From an uncultured Fidelibacterota bacterium (GTDB lineage: Bacteria > Fidelibacterota > Marinisomatia > Marinisomatales > UBA1611), in contig CAJWHW010000009.1 in assembly GCA_913040915.1 (NCBI GenBank), forward strand, positions 1 to 64,000: DNA of 64,000 nt, given 5' to 3'. Below, in pieces: positions 8,099 to 34,759 of the stretch. Every line of letters begins with the position of its first letter. Positions within the stretch are counted from its first letter, which is position 1. The position numbers and the translations under genes are program-made. The notes beneath the pieces are model-generated. The model did not search any database. It saw only the letters and a program-made list of their open reading frames with translations, and was not told where the DNA came from.

Positions 8099-8237
8099 GA
8101 TATAATTTTCTCCATTTGTCGATTAATTTTTAAGGAACAAAAACGGTGGTAAACATTATAAAATATTTTCGTAATTTACTTGAAAATACTAATACTTTCC
8201 AATGCAGATGAAGTGCTCCTGCCGTAATTTTTATGTT

Positions 8238-11200
8238 ATGGTTTATCATTCCATATCCATTATTCTATTTTCAGGGATATTATTTGCTTCCATAAATAAA
8301 ACAATTTTGCAAAATAATAAGGATCAACTTGTTATATCCATTAATATTAATGCGGAAACAGAGGCTGATCTTAGACCTGCATCCATTATGATTGGTTTAC
8401 CTACAAGCAATCTACCAAAAACACAAATTCAATTTTTAAATAAAGATGAAATACCCTTTAAGTCTCACCAAAAAAAGACAAGTGATTTTGAATGGATTAA
8501 TAAACAAAAACTTTGTAACCTAGAAGTAGCGACTTTGCATATATCTCCTTTAGCAAATTCAAATGAATATTTTAAAACGATCAAAGTATCACTGGATTTT
8601 GAACGAGAGAGATATGAGCACAGAAAACCTAATAAAAATGAATTTCTACTATTAAAAAATAGAATTGTTAATTGGGATATCGCTCAAAATTGGATTCTAA
8701 AAAAAGAGAGAATAACATCAAAAATTACAAATTATACCCCTGGACGATGGTTTCAGTTTTTTTTGACTGAAGATGGAATGGTATCAATTCCTTATTCATC
8801 ACTATCTAATGTAATTGATAATATATCAAATATAGACCCCAGATCATTTTCAATCTACATGAGTAATGAATTTGGTCGTGCAAGATCTCAATCTACCAAT
8901 CAGGAAATAGCACCTAACTTAGTTGAAATTGGTATTTGGGTGCAGGGAGAAGAAGACGGAGTTTTTGATATAAATGACAGGATTATTTTTTATGGTCGTG
9001 GTCCATCCGGATACGATGTTATTGGTAATGATTTAGACTGGCATCAAAATATTTATTTTTCAAAGAATTCCTGCTGGCTCTTTATTCCGAATGATTCTTC
9101 TTTAAAGGGTAAACGAATACATCCTGCTTCTCAACCTGAATCAGTTGCGATCACATTGGATTATGGAATCTCAGCAATACATGAAGAATTGGATCTTGTT
9201 AATCTAAAGGGTGAGGGCACTGTATGGCTTAGTAATTCTATTCCTGCTGGTACATCCCAAAACATTGTTGTTGATCTATTTGCGCCAAAACCAAGTGTGG
9301 ATATCAGCATAAAGGCACGCGTTTATGGTTTTTCTAATCCAGAAAATGCATTAGCAAATCATTCGATAAGTCTACGTTTTGGTGGATTAGATGGAGAAAC
9401 TATCGGAAACAATGCGACCTGGACATCTTCATCTTTTTTGAAGAGAGATATTGTTGATACATCACCAAATATTACTCTAAATAATGGTATAAATGTTTTC
9501 TATTTGAGAAATATGTCTGATGATTCTAAATCAATGCCACATTTTGATTTTTTTGAAATTCAGTACGGCCGAGAATTATCCTTTGAAGATTCTTATAATT
9601 TCAAATCTCCTATTTCAGGTCAGAATATTCGTTTTTCATTTACAGGCGTCAAACAAGCTACTCAATTTATGTGGGATATCACGGATGTATCAAACCCAGA
9701 ATCAATGGTATTTTCAGAGTCAAATTATATTAATGTAACAGTTCCAACTGCCTTAACAAAGTATTTCATAGTTTTTGATACTAATACATTACCGGAAATC
9801 ACAGAATTTACTATTAAAGAAGATCAAGAATTTTTTACTTTACGACAGAGCGGAATACAAGCGGATTATATTGTCACAGGTCCTGAAATATTTCGTGATG
9901 AAGCTACAGAATTAGTATATTTAAGGTCTCCTGCAATTTTTGCAAGTTTAGAAACAATTTATGATGAATTTTCTGCAGGGAATAAAGATCCAATGGGGAT
10001 TCGAAGTTTTATTCAATGGGCACTCGAAAAATGGACGGAACCAGTACCAACTTTTTTAATGATTCTGGGTGATAGTGGCTATGATTATAGAAATATCACT
10101 GGTCAATCTTCCATAGTATTTCCAACTATCCAAACTACATCCTATGCTACTGATGATAAACTAGCTACTTTAAATGGCAATGTACCAGAAGTTGCAATCG
10201 GTAGATTCCCTGCCAGAGATGAATCAGAAGTGACCAATTTTATTGAAAAAGTTTTAGTGATTGAGTCTAATCCTGATCTTGGCCCATGGAGGCAGCGGGT
10301 TACAATTATGGCTGATGATGGCGCCAGACCAGAGCCAGGCAGTGGATCAATAGAAGTTGGTAAATCACACACCCTTTATTCTGAGATTCTGGCAGACTTA
10401 GTACCGTCTTCTCTGAACGTGCAAAAAATTTATATGCAGGAATACCCTGAAGTCAGTGATGCTTCAGCCTTTGGAGTATTAAAACCAGATGCAACCGAAG
10501 ATGTTTTCAAAGCTTTGAACAAAGGAACAGCTATTATCTCGTACATTGGCCACGGTTCACCATATCAATTAGCCCAAGAAAAATTATTATCTCTCAACAG
10601 GGGCGATATCAATCAAATAAATACAGGCCAAAAAATGCCTATATGGATAGTTGGCACCTGTTCATTTGGGCATTTTGATGATCCATTAACAGAGTCGTTC
10701 GCGGAGGAACTGATTCGAGAACCCTTAAATGCTGCTTCCATGATCATTTCAACTTCCCGTAAAATATCTGTCTCAGGTAATTCTCGCTATACCAGAGAAT
10801 TATTTGAAAGAATTTTTGCTAATGACCAAGTAACAGATTCACCTATTGGTGTAATTCTACAAATTGTAAAAGATGGAGCTCCAGAAGGACAATATTTTCA
10901 TTTATTTGGAGACCCAGCGATGTCCCTACCAATGCCTAAAGATATTTTAAACATCACAGGTGTAACACCTGATACATTAAAAACTCTTGGTATCGCAACT
11001 TTTAACGGGCAACAATCTAGTTTCGATGGAGATGGAGCAGGATATGTAGTATTAATTGATGCAGACCGAGAGGTAACTCGAGAATATCAAATTAATTCTC
11101 AGACAGAATCTCTGACCTACAGTTTACCTGGACCAACTCTATTTAGGGGGCAATTCTCATTTGCAGGCGAAATATTTGCAGGAGATATTCGAATTCCTCA

Positions 11201-11951
11201 GGATATTTCATACTCTAATGATCCGGCCCGCCTAGTAATATATATTAATGATGAAAATAAAGAAGCTTCTGGAGTATTAAATGGCTTGCAATTGACTGGT
11301 GGTGATGGGACCAATGATACATTTGGTCCTAAGATTACATTTGAAACAGAATCTGGGCAGAGCTTGGAAAATGGAGATCATTTTCCTGAAGATCAAAATC
11401 TGATAATTAGAATGTCAGACCCATTAGGTATTAACCTAACTGATGAAACAGGACATGAAATTTTGGTGACAGATTTATTATCAAACCAATCAGAGACTAT
11501 TACTCAGGATTTCTATTATGATACAAACAGTATAATGACAGGCACAATTTCATTTTCTCCATCAAGTGGTAAAGAGATTAAATTATTGGTTAAGGTGTGG
11601 GATAATGCCAATAACCCTAATGAAAAGAAAATCCATTTATCTCGTACTTCAGCAAAAGACCTTAAAATATACAATGCTTATAATTACCCCAATCCATTTT
11701 CTACATTTACTCAATTTGCCTTTGAACTAACACAAACTGCAGATATAAAACTGGATATTTTTAGTTTAGGTGGAAGAAGAGTTAAATCTTTTGATGAATT
11801 CTCAAAAACTCCTGGATACCATACCATAGATTGGGATGGGTTAGATTCCTTTGGAAGTCAAATTGCAAATGGAGTTTACTTATATAGGCTTAAGGCTTTT
11901 GGTGAAAATAGTTCAGAAACTTATATTGGCCGGTGCGCAAAATACCAATAA
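8238..11951 (+). CDS. porU: PorU-like type IX secretion sortase (peptidase C25) with C-terminal T9SS/FlgD-Ig-like tail
   Basis: Signal peptide; IIFYGRGP; C25 core (IYDEFSAG..DPMGIRSF, ATDD, IGRFP, YIGHG, GTCSFGHFD, LFGDPAM); tail YNYPNPF...IDWDGLD...NGVYLYRL. Start placed at ATG 8238; the track uses 8202. Confidence 0.85.
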   Translation: MVYHSISIILFSGILFASINKTILQNNKDQLVISININAETEADLRPASIMIGLPTSNLPKTQIQFLNKDEIPFKSHQKKTSDFEWINKQKLCNLEVATLHISPLANSNEYFKTIKVSLDFERERYEHRKPNKNEFLLLKNRIVNWDIAQNWILKKERITSKITNYTPGRWFQFFLTEDGMVSIPYSSLSNVIDNISNIDPRSFSIYMSNEFGRARSQSTNQEIAPNLVEIGIWVQGEEDGVFDINDRIIFYGRGPSGYDVIGNDLDWHQNIYFSKNSCWLFIPNDSSLKGKRIHPASQPESVAITLDYGISAIHEELDLVNLKGEGTVWLSNSIPAGTSQNIVVDLFAPKPSVDISIKARVYGFSNPENALANHSISLRFGGLDGETIGNNATWTSSSFLKRDIVDTSPNITLNNGINVFYLRNMSDDSKSMPHFDFFEIQYGRELSFEDSYNFKSPISGQNIRFSFTGVKQATQFMWDITDVSNPESMVFSESNYINVTVPTALTKYFIVFDTNTLPEITEFTIKEDQEFFTLRQSGIQADYIVTGPEIFRDEATELVYLRSPAIFASLETIYDEFSAGNKDPMGIRSFIQWALEKWTEPVPTFLMILGDSGYDYRNITGQSSIVFPTIQTTSYATDDKLATLNGNVPEVAIGRFPARDESEVTNFIEKVLVIESNPDLGPWRQRVTIMADDGARPEPGSGSIEVGKSHTLYSEILADLVPSSLNVQKIYMQEYPEVSDASAFGVLKPDATEDVFKALNKGTAIISYIGHGSPYQLAQEKLLSLNRGDINQINTGQKMPIWIVGTCSFGHFDDPLTESFAEELIREPLNAASMIISTSRKISVSGNSRYTRELFERIFANDQVTDSPIGVILQIVKDGAPEGQYFHLFGDPAMSLPMPKDILNITGVTPDTLKTLGIATFNGQQSSFDGDGAGYVVLIDADREVTREYQINSQTESLTYSLPGPTLFRGQFSFAGEIFAGDIRIPQDISYSNDPARLVIYINDENKEASGVLNGLQLTGGDGTNDTFGPKITFETESGQSLENGDHFPEDQNLIIRMSDPLGINLTDETGHEILVTDLLSNQSETITQDFYYDTNSIMTGTISFSPSSGKEIKLLVKVWDNANNPNEKKIHLSRTSAKDLKIYNAYNYPNPFSTFTQFAFELTQTADIKLDIFSLGGRRVKSFDEFSKTPGYHTIDWDGLDSFGSQIANGVYLYRLKAFGENSSETYIGRCAKYQ

Positions 11952-26558: not shown

Positions 26559-27485
26559 TTGGAAAATATGGTAGAATTAAGAAAAATAGTTCAGGGAACT
26601 CTGCTTGAAAATGAGCCCATGTCTCTCCATACTTCCTACGGTATTGGAGGGCCTGCCAAAGCTTATATAACTCCCAAAGATCGGCAGGATCTCGCAGAAA
26701 TTTTAAAATTCGCATATAAAAACAATATCGAAACCCATTTTGTAGGGTCTGGATCGAATTTGCTTGTTTCCGATTCTGGAATTAAAGGTATCGTAATTAG
26801 CCCTGCAAAAGCATTGACAAATTTAGAATTTGATGGTGAAGCTCTTATCTCTGAATCTGGTGTAATGTTAGGAAGAATAGTCAAAGAGTGTATCAAGCGA
26901 AATCTCAGCGGATTAGAAAGTTTAATCGGTGTGCCCGGTACACTAGGAGGTGCTCTAGTGATGAATGCGGGAGCATTTGGAGGAGAAATTTCTAATTATC
27001 TGATATCAGTAGAGATAATGAATATGTCCGGTACAATTAATAACTACTACCCTGGCGATATTGATTTTGCTTATCGATTCTCTACAATTAGGTCAGATGA
27101 ATTTGTTTTATTGGCACGATTTAAATTGAAAACCGAAGATCCTGTGATCATTCAGAAAAAAAGAAATAAAGCAAGCAAAGGCAGAAAAACAAATCAGCCT
27201 CTCAAATTCCGGTCTGCAGGCAGTGTTTTTAAAAACCCAAAGGATTTTGCTGCAGGATATTTGATTGACCAAGCAGGATTAAAGGGATCTCGTATTGGTG
27301 ACGCTGAAATTTCACCACACCACGCAAATTTTTTCATTAATCATGGGAATGCAAAATCTTCAGATATTGCTGCATTAATTCGTTTAGCAAAACAAATAGT
27401 ATTTGAAAAGTTTGGAATTGAATTAGAATTAGAAATCAAAACAATTGGTTTTGACTCTAAGGAATTAGAAGCAGATGAAACGTAA
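26559..27485 (+). CDS. murB: UDP-N-acetylmuramate dehydrogenase
   Basis: GIGGPA, GSGSNLL, MNAGAFG, SAGSVFKNP and HANF motifs. Confidence 0.95.
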   Translation: MENMVELRKIVQGTLLENEPMSLHTSYGIGGPAKAYITPKDRQDLAEILKFAYKNNIETHFVGSGSNLLVSDSGIKGIVISPAKALTNLEFDGEALISESGVMLGRIVKECIKRNLSGLESLIGVPGTLGGALVMNAGAFGGEISNYLISVEIMNMSGTINNYYPGDIDFAYRFSTIRSDEFVLLARFKLKTEDPVIIQKKRNKASKGRKTNQPLKFRSAGSVFKNPKDFAAGYLIDQAGLKGSRIGDAEISPHHANFFINHGNAKSSDIAALIRLAKQIVFEKFGIELELEIKTIGFDSKELEADET

Positions 27486-28242
27486 GAAAAAACAACATTT
27501 CAACTGGAATATACTAATTATTGATACAATTATTTTTTCAATTGTTGTAGGATTGATCTGGACTTCATTTTGGTGGTCAGGGTTTAAAAATTCTTTAGCA
27601 ATCAATAAAATAAAATTTGGTGAGACATCTATTTTAAATGAATCAGTTTATAATTCTACATTAGGAGAAATTGAAGGTATACATCCTTCCAATATCGATA
27701 TCAAAAATATAAGTGAATTATTAGAAGATCATCCTTATGTGAAGGCGGCGCGTGTCAGTCATCGGTATCCAGGTACTATACAAATAGAAATTGAGGAAAG
27801 GGAACCGATTGCACTTCTAAAATCTGATCCAATGATTATGCTTGATCAAGATGGGTATGTTCTTCCTGATTTAAATAATCTACAAAATTTCAATCTTCCC
27901 ATTTTAACAAATTTTAATCCGGATCTTGAATTGTATCCCATAGGAAAAAAAGCACTGTCTGTAAAAGTTAACGAATGTATAATATCGCTTGCGTGGATTA
28001 AGCAAGATTATGAACCGCTCTTTGATAATCTATCTGAATTGAAAATATCTGAAAACAACGAAATAGAACTTATTTTAGCTGATCAACCTACTCAAATTTT
28101 TCTCGGTGAAAATGAATTAGGATCCAGAATAAAAATTCTGAAACAATTTGAAGTAGAATTAGGCACGAAAAAAATATCAGATTTTAGTTATTTGGATATG
28201 CGTTATAAAAACCAAATTATTGTTAAAGGAAGACGATCATGA
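27475..28242 (+). CDS. ftsQ: Cell division protein FtsQ/DivIB
   Basis: TM helix, POTRA domain (HPYVKAARVS..PGTIQIEIEEREP) and C-terminal YLDMRY; syntenic position. Confidence 0.88.
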   Translation: MKRKKKQHFNWNILIIDTIIFSIVVGLIWTSFWWSGFKNSLAINKIKFGETSILNESVYNSTLGEIEGIHPSNIDIKNISELLEDHPYVKAARVSHRYPGTIQIEIEEREPIALLKSDPMIMLDQDGYVLPDLNNLQNFNLPILTNFNPDLELYPIGKKALSVKVNECIISLAWIKQDYEPLFDNLSELKISENNEIELILADQPTQIFLGENELGSRIKILKQFEVELGTKKISDFSYLDMRYKNQIIVKGRRS

Positions 28243-29516
28243 GACCAATTGGGAATGGACAAGATCGTCAGATTACTGTTGGAATAGATATAGGATCTAG
28301 TACTATCACCTGCGCCATTGGTATGGTAATTCATGAATCTAAACGAGTTAAATTATTGGGAATTGCATCAACACCATCTGCAGGAATTCGAAGAGGGACA
28401 ATCACCAATAGAGATGAATTAATTACTAAACTGGATAATACGTTAACTGAAGCAGAATTAATGGCAAATATGAAAGTTACCAGTGCTATTCTTTCGATTA
28501 CAGGTGATCATATACGCTGTTTAAATACACAAGCTGCCATCGCATTAAACCGAACTAGCGCAGGAACGGGCGGAATTATGGAACGGGTTATCAATGAAAC
28601 AGATATTTTTCAAGTACTAGATTTAGCTCAAGCTGTTTCTCTGCCAATTGATAGGGATATTTTACACACTCTCCCTCAGGAATATTTGGTAGATACTTTA
28701 GAAGAAATTAAAAACCCTATTGGGATGACTGGACGTAGATTAGAAGGTAGAGTGCATTTAGTTACTGCTGCTACAACTGGAATGAATAATTTAGTTAACT
28801 GTGTTGAAGAGTTAGGAATCACTGTCGCCGGTTTAGTTTTCCAACCTCTAGCATCAGCAATGGCTACTCTCCGTGGTGATGAGATAGAATTGGGTGTCAC
28901 ACTCGTTGAAATTGGATCATCTTCAACCAACATTGCTGTTTACCATGGCAGTGCGGTTCGACATTCCGCCACTATACCAATTGGTTCAGCAAGTATTACC
29001 CATGATATAGCAGTTATGCTTCAAATCAGTATAGAAGAAGCAGAAAATATTAAGATAAAGTATACATCTGCTCGCTCTTCTATGTCGTCATCTAAACTAG
29101 AAATTGACCTGCCTACTCGAGCCGGTCAATTGGAACGAGCTGTTCCTGAACAAGAAGTTTCCAGATATGTTGAAGCACGTATGCAAGAAATATTTCAAAT
29201 GGTCATTCGCGAGATTTCTCGAGCAGATATTAAAGATCCACTGACATATGGAATTGTATTGACTGGCGGTGGTGCACAATTGAGAAATATTGTATCACTA
29301 GCAGAAAATTCTCTTGGCGTTAAAGTTCGTCAAGGAAAACCCATAAAAATTGACGGTGCCCAGGATATTGCGGATGGGCCAAGTTATTCTACAGCCATGG
29401 GGCTTCTACTTTGGCCATTGTACGCAACAGACCATGTTCGGTTGCAACAACCAAAAAATGGAGGAATCTCAGGGCTATTCAAAAAAATTCGACATACCAT
29501 CGAAGACATGTTTTAA
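28239..29516 (+). CDS. ftsA: Cell division protein FtsA
   Basis: GIDIGSS and VLTGGGAQL motifs with a C-terminal amphipathic helix. Confidence 0.95.
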   Translation: MRPIGNGQDRQITVGIDIGSSTITCAIGMVIHESKRVKLLGIASTPSAGIRRGTITNRDELITKLDNTLTEAELMANMKVTSAILSITGDHIRCLNTQAAIALNRTSAGTGGIMERVINETDIFQVLDLAQAVSLPIDRDILHTLPQEYLVDTLEEIKNPIGMTGRRLEGRVHLVTAATTGMNNLVNCVEELGITVAGLVFQPLASAMATLRGDEIELGVTLVEIGSSSTNIAVYHGSAVRHSATIPIGSASITHDIAVMLQISIEEAENIKIKYTSARSSMSSSKLEIDLPTRAGQLERAVPEQEVSRYVEARMQEIFQMVIREISRADIKDPLTYGIVLTGGGAQLRNIVSLAENSLGVKVRQGKPIKIDGAQDIADGPSYSTAMGLLLWPLYATDHVRLQQPKNGGISGLFKKIRHTIEDMF

Positions 29517-29546
29517 CCAAACCAGTAATAAATAAGGAGGAATATC

Positions 29547-30761
29547 ATGCTGTTTGAGTTTGATAGTCTATCTGAACAGAAAGCGAAACTAAAAGTTGTC
29601 GGAGTTGGCGGCGCAGGTGGGAATGCAGTTACCCGAATGATCACATCTGGAATGCAAGGTGTAGATTTCATTGCCATAAACACCGATGCCCAGGACTTAG
29701 ATAATAATCCATCAGAAAATAAAATACAAGTTGGTAAAAATCTGACAAAAGGATTAGGTGCTGGAGCAAATTCCAGTGTTGGCAAAGAAGCCATCGAAGC
29801 AGATCGTGATGCTATTATCACTATGCTTGATGGTGCGGACATGGTTTTCATTACAGGAGGAATGGGTGGCGGTACCGGTACAGGTGCAGCACCTGTTATT
29901 TCTCAAATATCTAGAGAATTAGGTATTTTAACTGTGGGAATTGTTACTCTACCATTCAGTTTTGAAGGTCCAAAAAGAATGAACCGTGCCTTGGAAGGCA
30001 TGGCTGAAATGAAAAAAGCCTGCGATACAGTTATTGCAATACCGAATCAAAAACTGATGTCTATCGTAGATAAATCCACTACACTTCCTGAAGCCTTTCA
30101 AATGGCGGATACTATACTCCATCATGCAGCGAAAGGGATATCCGATTTGATTAATGTCCACGGTGTAATTAACTTAGATTTTGCAGATGTGGAAACCATT
30201 ATGAAAAATATGGGTGAAGCAATTATGGGGACCGGTGTTGCATCTGGTGAAGAACGGGCTGTATTGGCAGCACAACAAGCCATATCTAGCCCACTGCTTG
30301 ATGATGCATCCATAAAAGGTGCGCAAGGTGTTTTGGTAAACATCACTGGCGGAAATGACCTAACATTAATGGAAGCTAATGAAGCCACTAGCATCATTTT
30401 TGAAGAAGCTGGCCCTTCCGCTAATATTATTTTTGGTGCTGTTATTGATCCTAATATGACGGATGAGATTCGCGTTACAGTAATTGCAACTGGTTTTAAT
30501 ATGCCAAAAGCTATTACTAAAGTAGAGAATCTTGAAAAGAAAACAGAAACAAGAACACCTATTCTCTCTCACACGCGTGAATTACAAGATAGAGAAAATA
30601 AACCTCTCCATGCCCAAAAAGAAAATAATGAACAAGAGTTACCTACTGAAACTGAAAAACCAAAACCAGCATTAACTTTTGATGCAACAAAGGAAGCGCC
30701 GGTAATTTACGGTAAGGATCTACAGATACCTGCTTTTATTAGAAGGCAACATGATTCATGA
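29547..30761 (+). CDS. ftsZ: Cell division protein FtsZ
   Basis: GGMGGGTGTG tubulin motif, NLDFADV and C-terminal IPAFIRRQ. AGGAGG RBS upstream. Confidence 0.98.
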   Translation: MLFEFDSLSEQKAKLKVVGVGGAGGNAVTRMITSGMQGVDFIAINTDAQDLDNNPSENKIQVGKNLTKGLGAGANSSVGKEAIEADRDAIITMLDGADMVFITGGMGGGTGTGAAPVISQISRELGILTVGIVTLPFSFEGPKRMNRALEGMAEMKKACDTVIAIPNQKLMSIVDKSTTLPEAFQMADTILHHAAKGISDLINVHGVINLDFADVETIMKNMGEAIMGTGVASGEERAVLAAQQAISSPLLDDASIKGAQGVLVNITGGNDLTLMEANEATSIIFEEAGPSANIIFGAVIDPNMTDEIRVTVIATGFNMPKAITKVENLEKKTETRTPILSHTRELQDRENKPLHAQKENNEQELPTETEKPKPALTFDATKEAPVIYGKDLQIPAFIRRQHDS

Positions 30762-30834: not shown

Positions 30835-30866
30835 AAAAAAAAGCTCTCTGAATACCAGAGAGCTTT
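30835..30866 (-). terminator. Rho-independent terminator for rpmB (possibly bidirectional)
   Basis: Perfect hairpin AAAGCTCTCTG-aatac-CAGAGAGCTTT (30840-30866). The A-tract at 30835-30842 gives a U-tail on the minus strand. Confidence 0.85.
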
Positions 30867-30895: not shown

Positions 30896-31132
30896 TTAGA
30901 CCTTAACACCTTTAGTTCTTAATTCATTTACAACCCTTGTGATACCTTTCTTATCAATAATACGCATTCCGCGCGTAGACAAGCGTAGGGTAACATATCG
31001 CTTCTCATCCGGAAGCCAAAATCTTTTCCTTTGTAGATTAATATTAAACCGACGTCTACTTTTATTATGTGCGTGACTCACATTATTTCCGAACATCGGC
31101 TTTTTCCCCGTTACATCACATACTCTGCTCAT
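30896..31132 (-). CDS. rpmB: 50S ribosomal protein L28
   Basis: [29 protein letters not shown]. Confidence 0.97.
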
Positions 31133-31250: not shown

Positions 31251-31709
31251 TTATGTATTGAGCTCATTTTTATTTCCTTCCTTAACTGCAATCAATGCCA
31301 TGGATAAGAATAGAGCTTTATATACGAATTCATGAGCACTTATAACAAAAGCAATCCAATAGTGATTATTCAATAATAAAAAAATAAAAAGCGGGTGTAT
31401 AATAAATAAGGCAATATTATAAAGTGTTAGATATTTAATAGCTTGTCTTTTTTTATATACCCAAAGAAAGGAAATAGTCACCCAAAAATATCCATTAAAA
31501 GGTAAATTAAGAAATATATTAATAAATCGATCTGATTTTGACTCTATCCAATAATCATCCAGATCTGCATAAATATATAAATCATTATATTGAACGGTAT
31601 AATTCTGCAGGTAGGGAACAATTACATTTGAAACTATACTAATTTGAACTGGCCGGATTAAATAAAAATAAAAAATACGGAAAAGGTTAAAAATAAATTT
31701 AACCAGAAA
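31251..31709 (-). CDS. Exosortase-associated multi-pass membrane protein (start uncertain)
   Basis: The frame of the 76-aa track ORF stays open upstream to 31709 (about 152 codons: FLVKFIFNLFRIFYFYLIRPVQ...LPFNGYFWVTISFLWVYKKR...). It has several hydrophobic helices and no ATG/GTG/TTG near its 5' end. Confidence 0.6.
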   Translation of the reverse strand, partial: FLVKFIFNLFRIFYFYLIRPVQISIVSNVIVPYLQNYTVQYNDLYIYADLDDYWIESKSDRFINIFLNLPFNGYFWVTISFLWVYKKRQAIKYLTLYNIALFIIHPLFIFLLLNNHYWIAFVISAHEFVYKALFLSMALIAVKEGNKNELNT

Positions 31710-32256
31710 TTAAAATATCTCTTTCGTCGCTGATAAGGGTCCATAAATACCAAAATAATAAAACAATCGGATAAAAGAAAATATAAGAACTATAATCATG
31801 AGCAATTTGAAAGTATTGTGGCATATTCGCATTTATCACTGCGAATAATGCTATTCTAATGATATTTGCAAAATATAGAATGCTAAGACCAATCAATAAG
31901 AAGATTATCCGTTTTTTCCATAGTCCCGGGTAAGCAATAATAAATCCTCCATATAAACCTAAAAGATTCAAGCCATTACATCCATTTTGAATCTCTACGC
32001 CACTATGTCCTATACATTTTATAATCCTGCCGGAAACGTTAATCTCCCAACCCATAAAGCCTAATAAACTGCCGGCTAGATTTACCCCTGATATACTTAA
32101 AAATGTGTCTAAACTGCCATCAGGAAGTAAAAAGAGATTATACAAAAATTGCCAAGCTGCATAAACTCCACCGGCTTTTATTAAAAATTGAGTTAATGGT
32201 GATATAGATTTACTTTTTTCGATTATACAGTTTTTTCCAAGCCATAGCCCCGCCAA
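31699..32256 (-). CDS. Exosortase/archaeosortase family transpeptidase (XrtF/XrtX-like)
   Basis: Multi-TM protein with the catalytic-triad motifs VEIQNGCNGL (Cys), ANIIRI (Arg) and AHDYS (His). Start uncertain (TTG 32256). Confidence 0.85.
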   Translation of the reverse strand: MAGLWLGKNCIIEKSKSISPLTQFLIKAGGVYAAWQFLYNLFLLPDGSLDTFLSISGVNLAGSLLGFMGWEINVSGRIIKCIGHSGVEIQNGCNGLNLLGLYGGFIIAYPGLWKKRIIFLLIGLSILYFANIIRIALFAVINANMPQYFQIAHDYSSYIFFYPIVLLFWYLWTLISDERDILISG

Positions 32257-32386
32257 ATAACCCTAATAGCCCTAGACCACCAACGGGTGCCTGATCAGGA
32301 TTACTAGGAAAGTCAACTCCTTGTGCAGTTAGCCATGATAGATTTAAGATTACTAAAATATAGATCGCATATAATTTCAATTTCAT
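32210..32386 (-). CDS. 58-aa micro-protein with signal peptide and exosortase-type (PID-CTERM-like) C-terminal sorting signal
   Basis: Not in the ORF track. Manual translation: MKLKLYAIYILVILNLSWLTAQGVDFPSNPDQAPVGGLGLLGLFGGAMAWKKLYNRKK*. ATG lies 10 nt after the upstream gene's stop, and the gene is immediately 5' of the exosortase. Confidence 0.85.
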   Translation of the reverse strand: MKLKLYAIYILVILNLSWLTAQGVDFPSNPDQAPVGGLGLLGLFGGAMAWKKLYNRKK

Positions 32387-32396
32387 TACTTCTGCC

Positions 32397-34487
32397 CTAT
32401 TTAACGTATGTGACTTTTTCAGTAAGAGTCTTTCCAGATGTACTAAGTTGCATAAAATACACTCCAGACGGTAAGAATCCAGGTACCCAAGAATAACTGT
32501 GACTCCCTGGGTTAAGAGTCTTCTGAAAAATTGTCTCTACCAATGCACCTTTTATATCATATACATTTAAGGTAATAATACTGATATCTGGGCTATAAAA
32601 GCTAATATTTGTACTGGGATTAAATGGATTCGGATAAACAGGATATAAAGTAAAATCTTTTGGAAGAATTATATGAGGATCACTTTCTAATGATAAATAT
32701 GTTATGGATATCGTAAACCTTGGATCACCCAAAACTGGGTATGTACCTATAGGCCCATCATAAGTAGCAGCAAAGCTTCCCTTAGGCTCGGTAGTAAAAG
32801 TATATTCACTTTCATAGTTTAGGTAAATTTCCATCTCTGTCATATTATCGATCAAGATCATATTTATATGATCTGGGAGCTCGTCTTTATTCCAGGAAAG
32901 TGTTACTTCTCGTGATTCTGTAATATAATTTGATTCTTCAAGACTAAGACACATAACATCGAAAGGAACATAAACAGTACCTTCAAAATCATAAGGATAA
33001 CTATTAATCTTATAGGCATCTCCATCAACGATACTCATCATTGCAATACGGGACGAAGCCTGAAAAGGTAATAATAACTGAGACTCACCATCATCTACAC
33101 CAATCGTTCCGCCTTCAAAAAAAGAAAAATGGTGAGAAGACGTATGGCCATCGAAGGAAGCATTGAAAACCATCCTACCTACACTTTCTTCATCCACAGT
33201 CCTGTAAAAGGTCCCCGATGAGTTGCACCTGTCTGCCCTTTCAATAGTAATACTACCCGTTCCGCCGCTGGCTTGAACCCAGAATCCCTGAAAAGGTTCT
33301 ATATGTCCACCTATCAAATCTCCAGAGCTACCACTACTATTATAAGTTTTCCAGTCTGAATTAGCATCGTCCCAAATACTTATGGTGGTAGAAACAGATG
33401 TTTTTGAAATAAGATCCCAGTCAATTGTTGCTGCATAAGGATTTCCTGCCAAAGCGAATTCACCATCAGCTATACTCCCTAAAGAAGTACTGGAACTGTT
33501 CTCTGCGCCTGAGACACTCAAAGACACAGGAAGATCCGAGTCACCATCCCAGTCTGTATCCTCAAACACATAGATTAAAAAACCTGTACCTGCCGTCAGG
33601 CTCGCACCACCACCAGAACTCGATATATCAGTTAATGCTGTCCAACTTTGACTAGAAACATTCAAGGTCCAAACATTAGCTGCACCATCCGTTACATCTG
33701 CACCTGTCATTCCCTGAGTCCATAACTCCGCTAATAAATCACTAAAAACCTGTCCGGCAACAGGGCTAGACATCATACGAAAACCAGAATTACCAGAAAT
33801 AGATACGCTACGATATCCATCCCATGCACCAGGGTCAAAACCATTATTCGAAAAATAGGTTGTAGATTGTATAATTGAATTACCAGTATTTTGATCTACA
33901 CCTGCCAAAAATGTCTCATCATCACTCCAACAATTCCAAGCACTACTAGAAGAAGATGTCACTGCAGATGTTTGCGTAGACACACGCTCGGCACGACCAT
34001 CTTCAAACTCATGCCAATTCCCACTACCATCCGTTCCTGGGTTACCAAATATATCAATATAATCCCAAGTTGAAGAATTATTTGCAGCAAAACTTTGACC
34101 AGCTGCTTCCTTAACTATAGCATGGTTGTCATCTCCATTAGAATCGGCTGGGCCACCACTACCTTGATTAACAAGGGTAGTATTTGAGCCTACTTCAAAA
34201 GCCTCGCCAAACCCGCTAGAACTTTTAGCAAATATTAAAAATGCACCTGCTGCTAATGTATAACTACTCAAGTCAATAGCAGTCGAATTTGTAGCATTCG
34301 CATTACCATTTGTCCATCTAATTATATAATAATCTGTGAGATTAACAGATGAGCTTCCTGAATTATGAATTTCAATGTATCTACAACCATCATCATCATC
34401 AGGATCTGCTATCTCTGTTATAATTATATCCGCCTTTGAAAACATTGGTAAAAAAACAAAGATTAATACAAAATAAATTTGACCCAT
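32397..34487 (-). CDS. Secreted lamin-tail-domain protein with T9SS C-terminal sorting domain
   Basis: Signal peptide; LTD-like IIITEIADP..YIEIHNSGSSSVNLTDY; central GNPYAATIDW...PFQGFWVQA region; tail YPNPFNPST...YDIKG...LPSGVYF...KVTYVK. Confidence 0.85.
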   Translation of the reverse strand: MGQIYFVLIFVFLPMFSKADIIITEIADPDDDDGCRYIEIHNSGSSSVNLTDYYIIRWTNGNANATNSTAIDLSSYTLAAGAFLIFAKSSSGFGEAFEVGSNTTLVNQGSGGPADSNGDDNHAIVKEAAGQSFAANNSSTWDYIDIFGNPGTDGSGNWHEFEDGRAERVSTQTSAVTSSSSSAWNCWSDDETFLAGVDQNTGNSIIQSTTYFSNNGFDPGAWDGYRSVSISGNSGFRMMSSPVAGQVFSDLLAELWTQGMTGADVTDGAANVWTLNVSSQSWTALTDISSSGGGASLTAGTGFLIYVFEDTDWDGDSDLPVSLSVSGAENSSSTSLGSIADGEFALAGNPYAATIDWDLISKTSVSTTISIWDDANSDWKTYNSSGSSGDLIGGHIEPFQGFWVQASGGTGSITIERADRCNSSGTFYRTVDEESVGRMVFNASFDGHTSSHHFSFFEGGTIGVDDGESQLLLPFQASSRIAMMSIVDGDAYKINSYPYDFEGTVYVPFDVMCLSLEESNYITESREVTLSWNKDELPDHINMILIDNMTEMEIYLNYESEYTFTTEPKGSFAATYDGPIGTYPVLGDPRFTISITYLSLESDPHIILPKDFTLYPVYPNPFNPSTNISFYSPDISIITLNVYDIKGALVETIFQKTLNPGSHSYSWVPGFLPSGVYFMQLSTSGKTLTEKVTYVK

Positions 34488-34759
34488 AATATTAGTTGCC
34501 CCAACTTTCTTTATTTTTAAATAACAAATGTTAGTTTAATTTACCATAAACAAGAAAAAATTAATATTTGATAACCATTAGTTTAAAACTCTAATAGGTT
34601 AATAATTAAATACAACTTCATTATTCTTGCTTTAGAATTATAATAATTAAAATATTATAATCATTTAGCTTAAGTTTTATTAAGATAACAATTATTTTTA
34701 ATTCAGTAAAAATAAAAAACAATATTTATTAGGACCATATAAAATTTAATTTTATTAAC

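Follow-up and report, generated by a model that had tools for sequence, protein, structure and literature searches.

The 64,000-nucleotide stretch analyzed here (the window; positions 1 to 64,000 of contig CAJWHW010000009.1 from an uncultured Fidelibacterota bacterium) contains a cassette of four closely spaced minus-strand genes (31251–34487) encoding a type IX secretion system (T9SS) cargo, a 58-aa micro-protein, an exosortase and a membrane partner. We propose that the exosortase and its miniature substrate form a dedicated system serving the surface attachment or retention of one class of T9SS cargo, defined by a shared stalk module, in one order of the Marinimicrobia, and we put the probability of this reading at about 60%.

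Conservation of a four-gene cassette

The open reading frames (ORFs) of the window place the 696-aa cargo gene first (32397–34487), with matches above cut-off to PF00932, PF18962 and TIGR04183. The micro-protein gene (32210–32386) starts 10 nt past the cargo stop and is followed by the exosortase gene (31699–32256), which encodes 185 aa from a TTG at 32256 and, if this TTG is the start, overlaps the micro-protein gene by 47 nt. The partner gene (31251–31744), recognized by homology to intact partner ORFs, overlaps the exosortase 3’ end by 46 nt. A first-pass annotation of this DNA had described four tightly packed minus-strand genes here, and re-reading the ORFs bears this out; the overlaps and spacing also suggest that the genes are co-transcribed.

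The arrangement is far beyond chance, with a second copy in the same genome and recurrence in most related loci, and the suggestion that the four genes constitute a conserved unit holds. The second cassette (C12:19083-23061) has an identical gene order, with a 935-aa cargo (He_PIG and Por_Secre_tail), a micro-protein of ~60 aa, an exosortase and an intact 172-aa partner. Cassette types 1 and 2 share 44% identity in the exosortase, 33% in the micro-protein, ~25% in the partner and 35–36% in the stalk, all four genes having diverged to a similarly large degree, and the type-2 exosortase is accompanied by a type-2 micro-protein and partner in four of four loci (OWN2, L042, L043 and L044).

Related loci were taken from one genome per species, giving 47 with an exosortase relative, and counts include these and the two loci of the source genome. 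The micro-protein is adjacent to the exosortase in 32 of the 39 loci with at least 400 nt upstream, an ORF bearing a C-terminal sorting domain (CTD) precedes the micro-protein in 30 of these 39, and 28 contain the stalk module. Intact partner homologues of 160–189 aa lie behind the exosortase in 38 of the 47 loci that extend 600 nt or more downstream, and a partner is present somewhere in the locus in 41. The order of cargo, micro-protein, exosortase and partner is thus mostly kept across relatives. Among the 47 related loci, all of the titled records are from Marinimicrobia, Neomarinimicrobiota or Fidelibacterota, and the remainder are entered as ‘uncultured bacterium’.

Surveying 401 genomes of the phylum with exosortase and micro-protein profiles gave matches in 49 and 50 genomes respectively: 45 have both, four have the exosortase only, five the micro-protein only, and 347 neither. 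The four exosortase-only genomes comprise two with fragment matches, one with a match at a contig edge, and one that is 70% complete. Within the two main families the exosortase is patchily distributed (20/43 and 25/66 genomes).

The micro-protein and its C-terminal tail

The micro-protein starts with a predicted signal peptide that ends with A-Q. Behind it come ~13 residues rich in Pro, the motif P-V-G-G (residues 34–37; 32276–32287, minus strand), a Gly/Ala/Leu-rich transmembrane (TM) helix, and a Lys/Arg tail. Family alignments point to P-V-G-G as the putative site of exosortase recognition and cleavage, and residues P27, P30, Q32, P34, G37, G45 and A49 are invariant in the family. The tripartite tail of motif, hydrophobic helix and basic cluster stands at the extreme C-terminus both in this sequence and in an alignment of 31 members, in keeping with the exosortase-signal architecture that the first-pass annotation had assigned to the 58-aa protein. 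Conservation extends to the passenger peptide, which fits the pattern A-Q-P-x-[LF]-P-x-x-P-x-Q-A-P-I with PIDGG-type relatives included. Codons 22–58 have 0.305 nonsynonymous differences per site (pN) against 0.793 synonymous differences per site (pS), values that are affected by saturation of the synonymous sites and an imperfect gapless alignment.

Among the 25,865 stop-to-stop ORFs of the source genome, which is 85% complete, the tail profile identifies only the two micro-proteins, one per exosortase, and our micro-protein profile, which scores the window micro-protein at 67.9–94.6 bits, likewise matches just two ORFs. Among 1.84 billion representative proteins the full-length profile has 329 matches at E <= 0.001, of which the best 150 are all 35–154 aa long except for a 707-aa protein with seven internal repeats, in which the match is not C-terminal, and no large protein bearing the micro-protein tail is present among these 150. 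Five relatives (P0262, P0264, P0268, P0287 and P0296) are PID-CTERM proteins of 131–154 aa, in which an N-terminal domain of 70–85 residues with two CxxC pairs precedes the shared hydrophobic segment, Pro-rich loop and tail; the ‘signal peptide’ of these proteins would be an internal helix.

Linkage of the micro-protein to stalk-bearing cargo

In the cargo encoded in the window, a signal peptide is followed by a lamin tail domain (LTD) as the variable head (residues 17–120; 34128–34439, minus strand; PF00932, 39.6 bits against a Pfam cut-off of 34.3), a conserved stalk module of ~390 aa (residues ~227–616; 32640–33809, minus strand), and a type A sorting domain (residues 617–692; 32412–32639, minus strand). 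The C-terminal Por_Secre_tail is above cut-off (PF18962, 37.7 bits against 27; TIGR04183, 39.7 against 23), which identifies the protein as a T9SS type A cargo.

All loci together contain 59 micro-protein genes, of which 57 are distinct, and with four of these lying at contig ends 53 can be assessed. Directly upstream of 51 of the 53 is an ORF passing the Por_Secre_tail cut-off, a figure made up of 49 of 49 cargo ORFs tested against Pfam and the two cargoes of the source genome; of all the micro-like ORFs, the two exceptions (L031 and L036) are the weakest and diverge the most. In a genus in which the exosortase is unlinked, the micro-protein gene lies 7–24 nt behind a stalk-module cargo of 631–685 aa at eight of eight loci. 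The micro-protein is thus genuinely linked to T9SS cargo, and more tightly than it is to the exosortase. The complete genome G186 contains a tandem array of ~43 kb (L052-L054; C1:1530001-1586000) with at least 10 T9SS cargo genes encoding 721–2297 aa, each followed by a near-identical gene for a 58-aa micro-protein and several then by exosortase N-terminal fragments of ~84 aa; in total there are 13 micro-protein genes and three full exosortase genes in this genome.

The stalk module was found with phmmer in 48 of the 51 distinct cargo ORFs that precede micro-proteins, directly before the sorting domain and behind N-terminal heads that differ from one another. Homologues in a large protein collection carry LTD, Calx-beta, LamG, pentraxin, lactonase-type propeller, endonuclease I and other heads; those that have a name are annotated as nothing more specific than T9SS sorting-domain or hypothetical proteins. 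The source genome has 52 ORFs with a T9SS CTD, and the two with a stalk module are precisely the two cassette cargoes; these are also the only stalk ORFs in the whole genome, and each has a micro-protein gene behind it. In the phylum survey, strong stalk matches (E <= 1e-100, a threshold picked after the data had been seen) occur in 49 genomes, and the micro-protein is present in 45 of them. Weaker stalk-like stretches (E 1e-28 to 1e-83) occur in another 27 genomes, where most of the proteins that contain them are ~2150 aa long and come from other families. Three of these loci, from other Marinimicrobia families, encode T9SS proteins of 1673–2157 aa with a distant stalk relative inside (L067:5981-12430, L068:6114-12587 and L069:5942-10963), followed on the 3’ side by three or four small secreted proteins (164–196 aa) and a protein of ~276–296 aa, with an 866-aa protein also present in L067 and L068.

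No Pfam or NCBIfam family matches the stalk module. An AlphaFold model of the stalk and CTD from a 29-sequence alignment (mean predicted local distance difference test score, pLDDT, 73.8) predicts an all-beta structure, a row of sandwiches resembling immunoglobulin (Ig) and fibronectin type III (FN3) domains. The first ~110 residues contain the most conserved motif, with invariant residues including G16, R21, P26, L36, W40, Q42, G43, D48 and N55, and are the least confident part of the model. Foldseek searches with the model returned only generic multi-Ig/FN3 arrays with TM-scores < 0.2, a PDB sequence search with the stalk and CTD profile returned CTD chains only, and the stalk falls with unnamed clusters in the Atlas at 0.87–0.89, which we treat only as a lead.

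The genome encodes the T9SS machinery, with a PorU gene in the window itself ~20 kb from the cassette (8193–11951, plus strand; NF033707, 563.5 bits against a cut-off of 420) and SprA pieces above cut-off on two contigs; a PorV-like match scores 131.6 bits against a cut-off of 250. PorU is present in 334 of the 401 genomes of the phylum and in 51 of the 54 with an exosortase or micro-protein, and its co-occurrence does not discriminate the genomes that have the system. The first-pass annotation had raised the possibility that the lipidated mini-peptide replaces anionic lipopolysaccharide (A-LPS) as the PorU acceptor. As a general role this cannot be sustained, because 50 of the 52 cargoes lack the system, leaving two that are coupled to it, and PorU is found in 334 of 401 genomes as against the 49–50 with exosortase or micro-protein. 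The PorU acceptor that is known is an amine, carried by a Ser or Gly attached to a linking sugar (PMC7468200), and the N-terminus of a peptide would therefore be a chemically similar acceptor. The cassette resembles the PorU/PorZ–A-LPS pathway in that its cargo ends in a type A CTD and PorU is encoded in the genome, but it differs in that only 2/52 cargoes are coupled to a micro-protein, and the micro-peptide as acceptor is hypothetical. Elsewhere in the genome there is a weak FemAB/VimA-like match (G000:C4:56136-56627; TIGR03019, 55.3 bits against a cut-off of 260) that may be connected with the making of a linking sugar that bears an amino acid.

Exosortase and membrane partner

The exosortase has the signature of the exosortase/archaeosortase superfamily (TIGR04178, 63.9 bits against 23; PF09721, 50.8 against 25.7). 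The codons of the catalytic residues Cys93 (31978–31980), Arg134 (31855–31857) and His153 (31798–31800) were read directly in the minus strand and the residues are invariant in an alignment of 18 sequences, in agreement with the first-pass description of an intact Cys/Arg/His set.

The multi-pass membrane partner predicted at the end of the cassette is present at the expected place and is a membrane protein, but it does not occupy one open frame in the window: the frame that starts with the ATG at 31744 ends after 28 codons, and the remainder (31251–31709) lies in another frame. The 5’ part of the gene contains a tandem repeat of TATTTTT (31650–31677) with two copies in the window and three in contigs of the metagenomic runs X3 and X5, which come from different studies and have seven extra bases behind 31663 that constitute the third copy on the coding strand. 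Run X1 contains 94% of the sampled words and is possibly the source sample; two of its contigs end and overlap exactly at the repeat. With the third copy restored, the partner is a single 166-aa ORF that scores 183.9 bits over profile positions 4–164 of 167. The break may thus be a collapsed short repeat or a natural (on/off) variant, and both alleles may coexist. A −1 slip near 31703 was also considered as the cause and rejected; it is the 7-nt copy difference at 31663/31664 that restores the right product length. A model of the partner (pLDDT 82.2) is built of four long helices, with a small beta loop facing what is presumably the periplasm, and a fold search with it gave no meaningful structural match, the best hits being designed helical bundles (Z 7.5). 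In the Atlas the partner falls with unnamed Balneolota and Fidelibacterota clusters at 0.93–0.94, and at 0.81 with a cluster in which 22% of members have PF28117 (XrtH_assoc); we regard these as leads only.

Relationship to known exosortase systems

The PGF-CTERM/archaeosortase A and PEP-CTERM/exosortase A systems, which have been proposed to cleave their substrates and attach the C-terminus so formed to a lipid or another acceptor, sort many large proteins per enzyme. The Marinimicrobia cassette shares with them the enzyme superfamily (TIGR04178, with Cys, Arg and His), the tripartite C-terminal signal and this proposed mode of action, but here the only substrate would be a mini-protein with a passenger of ~13 residues, tied to a second sorting system.

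The closest relatives of the cassette are three NCBIfam models for PID_CTERM (NF046080), XrtX (NF046081) and assoc_w_XrtX (NF046082), and the first-pass annotation was right that such models exist. Our literature search found no paper on PID-CTERM and none relevant on XrtX, and the trio consists of curated models. Judged by sequence, the cassette is a divergent relative of, and homologous to, this trio, and it falls below all three cut-offs. XrtX is the best-scoring exosortase subfamily, at 146.9 bits for the window copy and 141.8 for the second copy against a cut-off of 170, and the XrtX-type label is therefore not supported at the NCBI threshold. PID_CTERM (cut-off 26) has no match to the window micro-protein at E <= 1 and identifies neither micro-protein in the genome scan, and a consensus-like member of the family (P0241) reaches 19.3 bits over model positions 5–25 only; our own profile nevertheless retrieves P-I-D-G-G proteins that pass PID_CTERM at 39.7–44.5 bits. 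The assoc_w_XrtX model (cut-off 75) has no match in the genome at E <= 10, and none of 26 partner homologues matches any exosortase-partner model. The likenesses are an exosortase of ~170–185 aa, a tiny substrate of signal peptide plus tail, a small multi-pass partner downstream and the passenger pattern, whereas the motif is P-[IV]-G-G, one residue shorter than P-I-D-G-G, and the phylum is Marinimicrobia/Fidelibacterota.

The XrtF system of Flavobacterium johnsoniae is similar in having a short exosortase of the FCB (Fibrobacterota–Chlorobiota–Bacteroidota) group and an adjacent small membrane partner, but the exosortases here score 60.1 and 70.8 bits with the XrtF model TIGR04128 (cut-off 90), and TIGR04127 (cut-off 35) has no match at the partner loci. 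In-frame deletion of xrtF or the adjacent exosortase F-associated gene in F. johnsoniae gives the same seven phenotypes as deletion of porU or porZ (PMC10936215), and this fits a link between exosortase and T9SS. The authors of that study state that the substrates of exosortases, XrtF included, remain to be found (PMC10936215).

Proposed role and alternatives

In the mechanism that we favor, the 58-aa protein would be exported by Sec and most likely trimmed by signal peptidase I after the conserved Ala, leaving an N-terminal Gln, with the C-terminal helix holding the protein in the inner membrane. The exosortase (Cys93/Arg134/His153) and its predicted 4-TM partner would recognize the P-[IV]-G-G/TM/basic tail and cut at or near the motif, and the Pro-rich peptide of ~13 residues would be passed to an acceptor, by analogy with other exosortases and archaeosortases. 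The micro-protein would be the sole substrate of the exosortase, and its product would serve the cargo encoded directly upstream, most likely in the surface attachment or retention of proteins with the ~390-aa Ig-like stalk. The presence of one micro-protein gene per cargo suggests a consumed component, not a catalyst or regulator.

How the product might act on the cargo can be framed more narrowly as an adaptor in series, with the exosortase fixing the C-terminus of the peptide to a membrane lipid or glycolipid and PorU joining the CTD-trimmed stalk cargo to the N-terminal amine of the peptide, giving a peptide-bridged anchor with one peptide per cargo molecule. This would explain the micro-protein gene for each cargo, the conservation of the N-terminal Gln and peptide, and the copying of porU and porZ phenotypes by xrtF mutants, and as a specific proposal we think it unlikely to be correct.

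A different possibility is that the micro-protein is never cleaved and acts as a stable membrane subunit or escort anchored at both ends, whose periplasmic loop binds the stalk of cargo en route to the T9SS and which has the exosortase-like protein and the partner as membrane companions. Conservation of the periplasmic peptide beyond the tail motif is consistent with this, as are the 131–154-aa PIDGG relatives with a CxxC domain, in which the ‘signal peptide’ would lie inside the chain as a membrane helix, and the low confidence with which the most conserved part of the stalk is modeled, as expected if it folds on a partner. It is nonetheless improbable, as a full motif/TM/basic-cluster tail at the extreme C-terminus marks exosortase substrates, the catalytic Cys, Arg and His are kept in 18/18 aligned sequences, and the enzyme and micro-protein occur together in 45 of the 54 genomes that have either one.

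The product could also have nothing to do with the cargo and be, for instance, an envelope peptide linked to a lipid or glycan, with the adjacency reflecting shared regulation or duplication history. The at least 10 cargo and micro-protein pairs in G186 did arise by recent tandem duplication, with exosortase 5’ fragments copied as well, and the adjacency count is therefore inflated, as it is further by kinship among the genomes. We find this account distinctly improbable, however, given that 8/8 loci with an unlinked exosortase keep the micro-protein 7–24 nt behind a stalk cargo, that 51/53 assessable micro-protein genes lie behind a CTD-bearing ORF, that exactly the 2/52 T9SS cargoes with a stalk have a micro-protein behind them, and that 45 of the 49 genomes with strong stalk matches (at the threshold set post hoc) have the micro-protein.

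Release of the ~13-residue peptide as a diffusible, pheromone-like signal would suit a short, Pro-rich and conserved passenger whose N-terminal Gln could cyclize and so be protected, but it is very unlikely, as the flanks (rpmB, the dcw cluster or unrelated genes) contain no conserved sensor or regulator gene beside the cassette, the 13 micro-protein copies in G186, many of them identical, better fit a consumed structural component, and the exosortase and archaeosortase members that have been studied are described as attaching their products, not releasing them (summarized in PMC7468200).

Several observations count against a dedicated exosortase and mini-substrate serving stalk-bearing cargo. 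Positive genomes are confined to four families of one order, and since these are related their co-occurrences cannot be counted as independent; recent tandem duplication accounts for much of the pairing in G186, which similarly adds little independent evidence. Seven of the 39 exosortase loci have no adjacent micro-protein, among them a clade whose exosortase genes lie behind unrelated genes (L028, L030, L033, L035, L040 and L046) and L025, in which the micro-protein is 2.5 kb upstream. Directly upstream of exosortases of this kind is a 64–65-aa protein with an N-terminal TM segment followed by CPxCG...CxYC (L035:2797-2994, L040:5733-5927 and L046:5800-5994); the same kind of protein heads the G186 array (L052:2158-2352), and the zinc-ribbon-like 65-aa form has no Pfam match. 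The partner was not found in 6/47 loci and its frame is broken in the window itself at 31663/31664. At three loci it is replaced by a protein of 474–482 aa (L022:1463-2905, L039:6094-7518 and L048:130-1578) that shares with the partner only the first ~12 residues, where the gene overlaps the 3’ end of the exosortase gene, with no Pfam match to the 474–480-aa proteins of L022 and L039; the other partner-less loci are L014, with a T9SS protein downstream, and L019 and L038, which have a truncated partner only. The stalk alignment has no invariant Lys able to accept a peptide, and no micro-protein lies behind the distant stalk-like genes at the three loci examined (L067, L068 and L069), so that distant stalk relatives exist without the system. 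The F. johnsoniae phenocopy concerns XrtF, a related but different subfamily, and no RNA run is listed for the stretch.

According to PMC10936215, the substrates of the short exosortases of the Bacteroidota and FCB group have yet to be reported. With the mini-protein as the only tail-bearing substrate, the chemistry of the Marinimicrobia enzyme is directly testable, with one small peptide to be traced by mass spectrometry. The constant place of the micro-protein gene behind one class of T9SS surface protein suggests a coupling of exosortase processing to T9SS attachment. The Marinimicrobia are abundant and uncultured ocean bacteria whose coupled cargoes have varied heads on a common stalk, namely lamin-tail, LamG, Calx-beta, nuclease and lactonase-propeller domains, so that the display of an entire set of surface enzymes and adhesins may be governed by the system.

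Genomic setting of the cassette

A weak promoter-like site lies upstream of the cargo gene (34654–34683, minus strand; 10 of 12 consensus positions matched), and the number of such sites in the region is not above that in shuffled controls. One flank of the cassette is the end of a cell-division (dcw) cluster, with ftsQ-, ftsA- and ftsZ-like ORFs on the plus strand (27475–30761). The other flanking gene is rpmB (30896–31132, minus strand), with a strong terminator-like hairpin to its 3’ side (30840–30866), and rpmB also lies 3’ of the partner gene in several relatives (L004, L005, L007 and L008).

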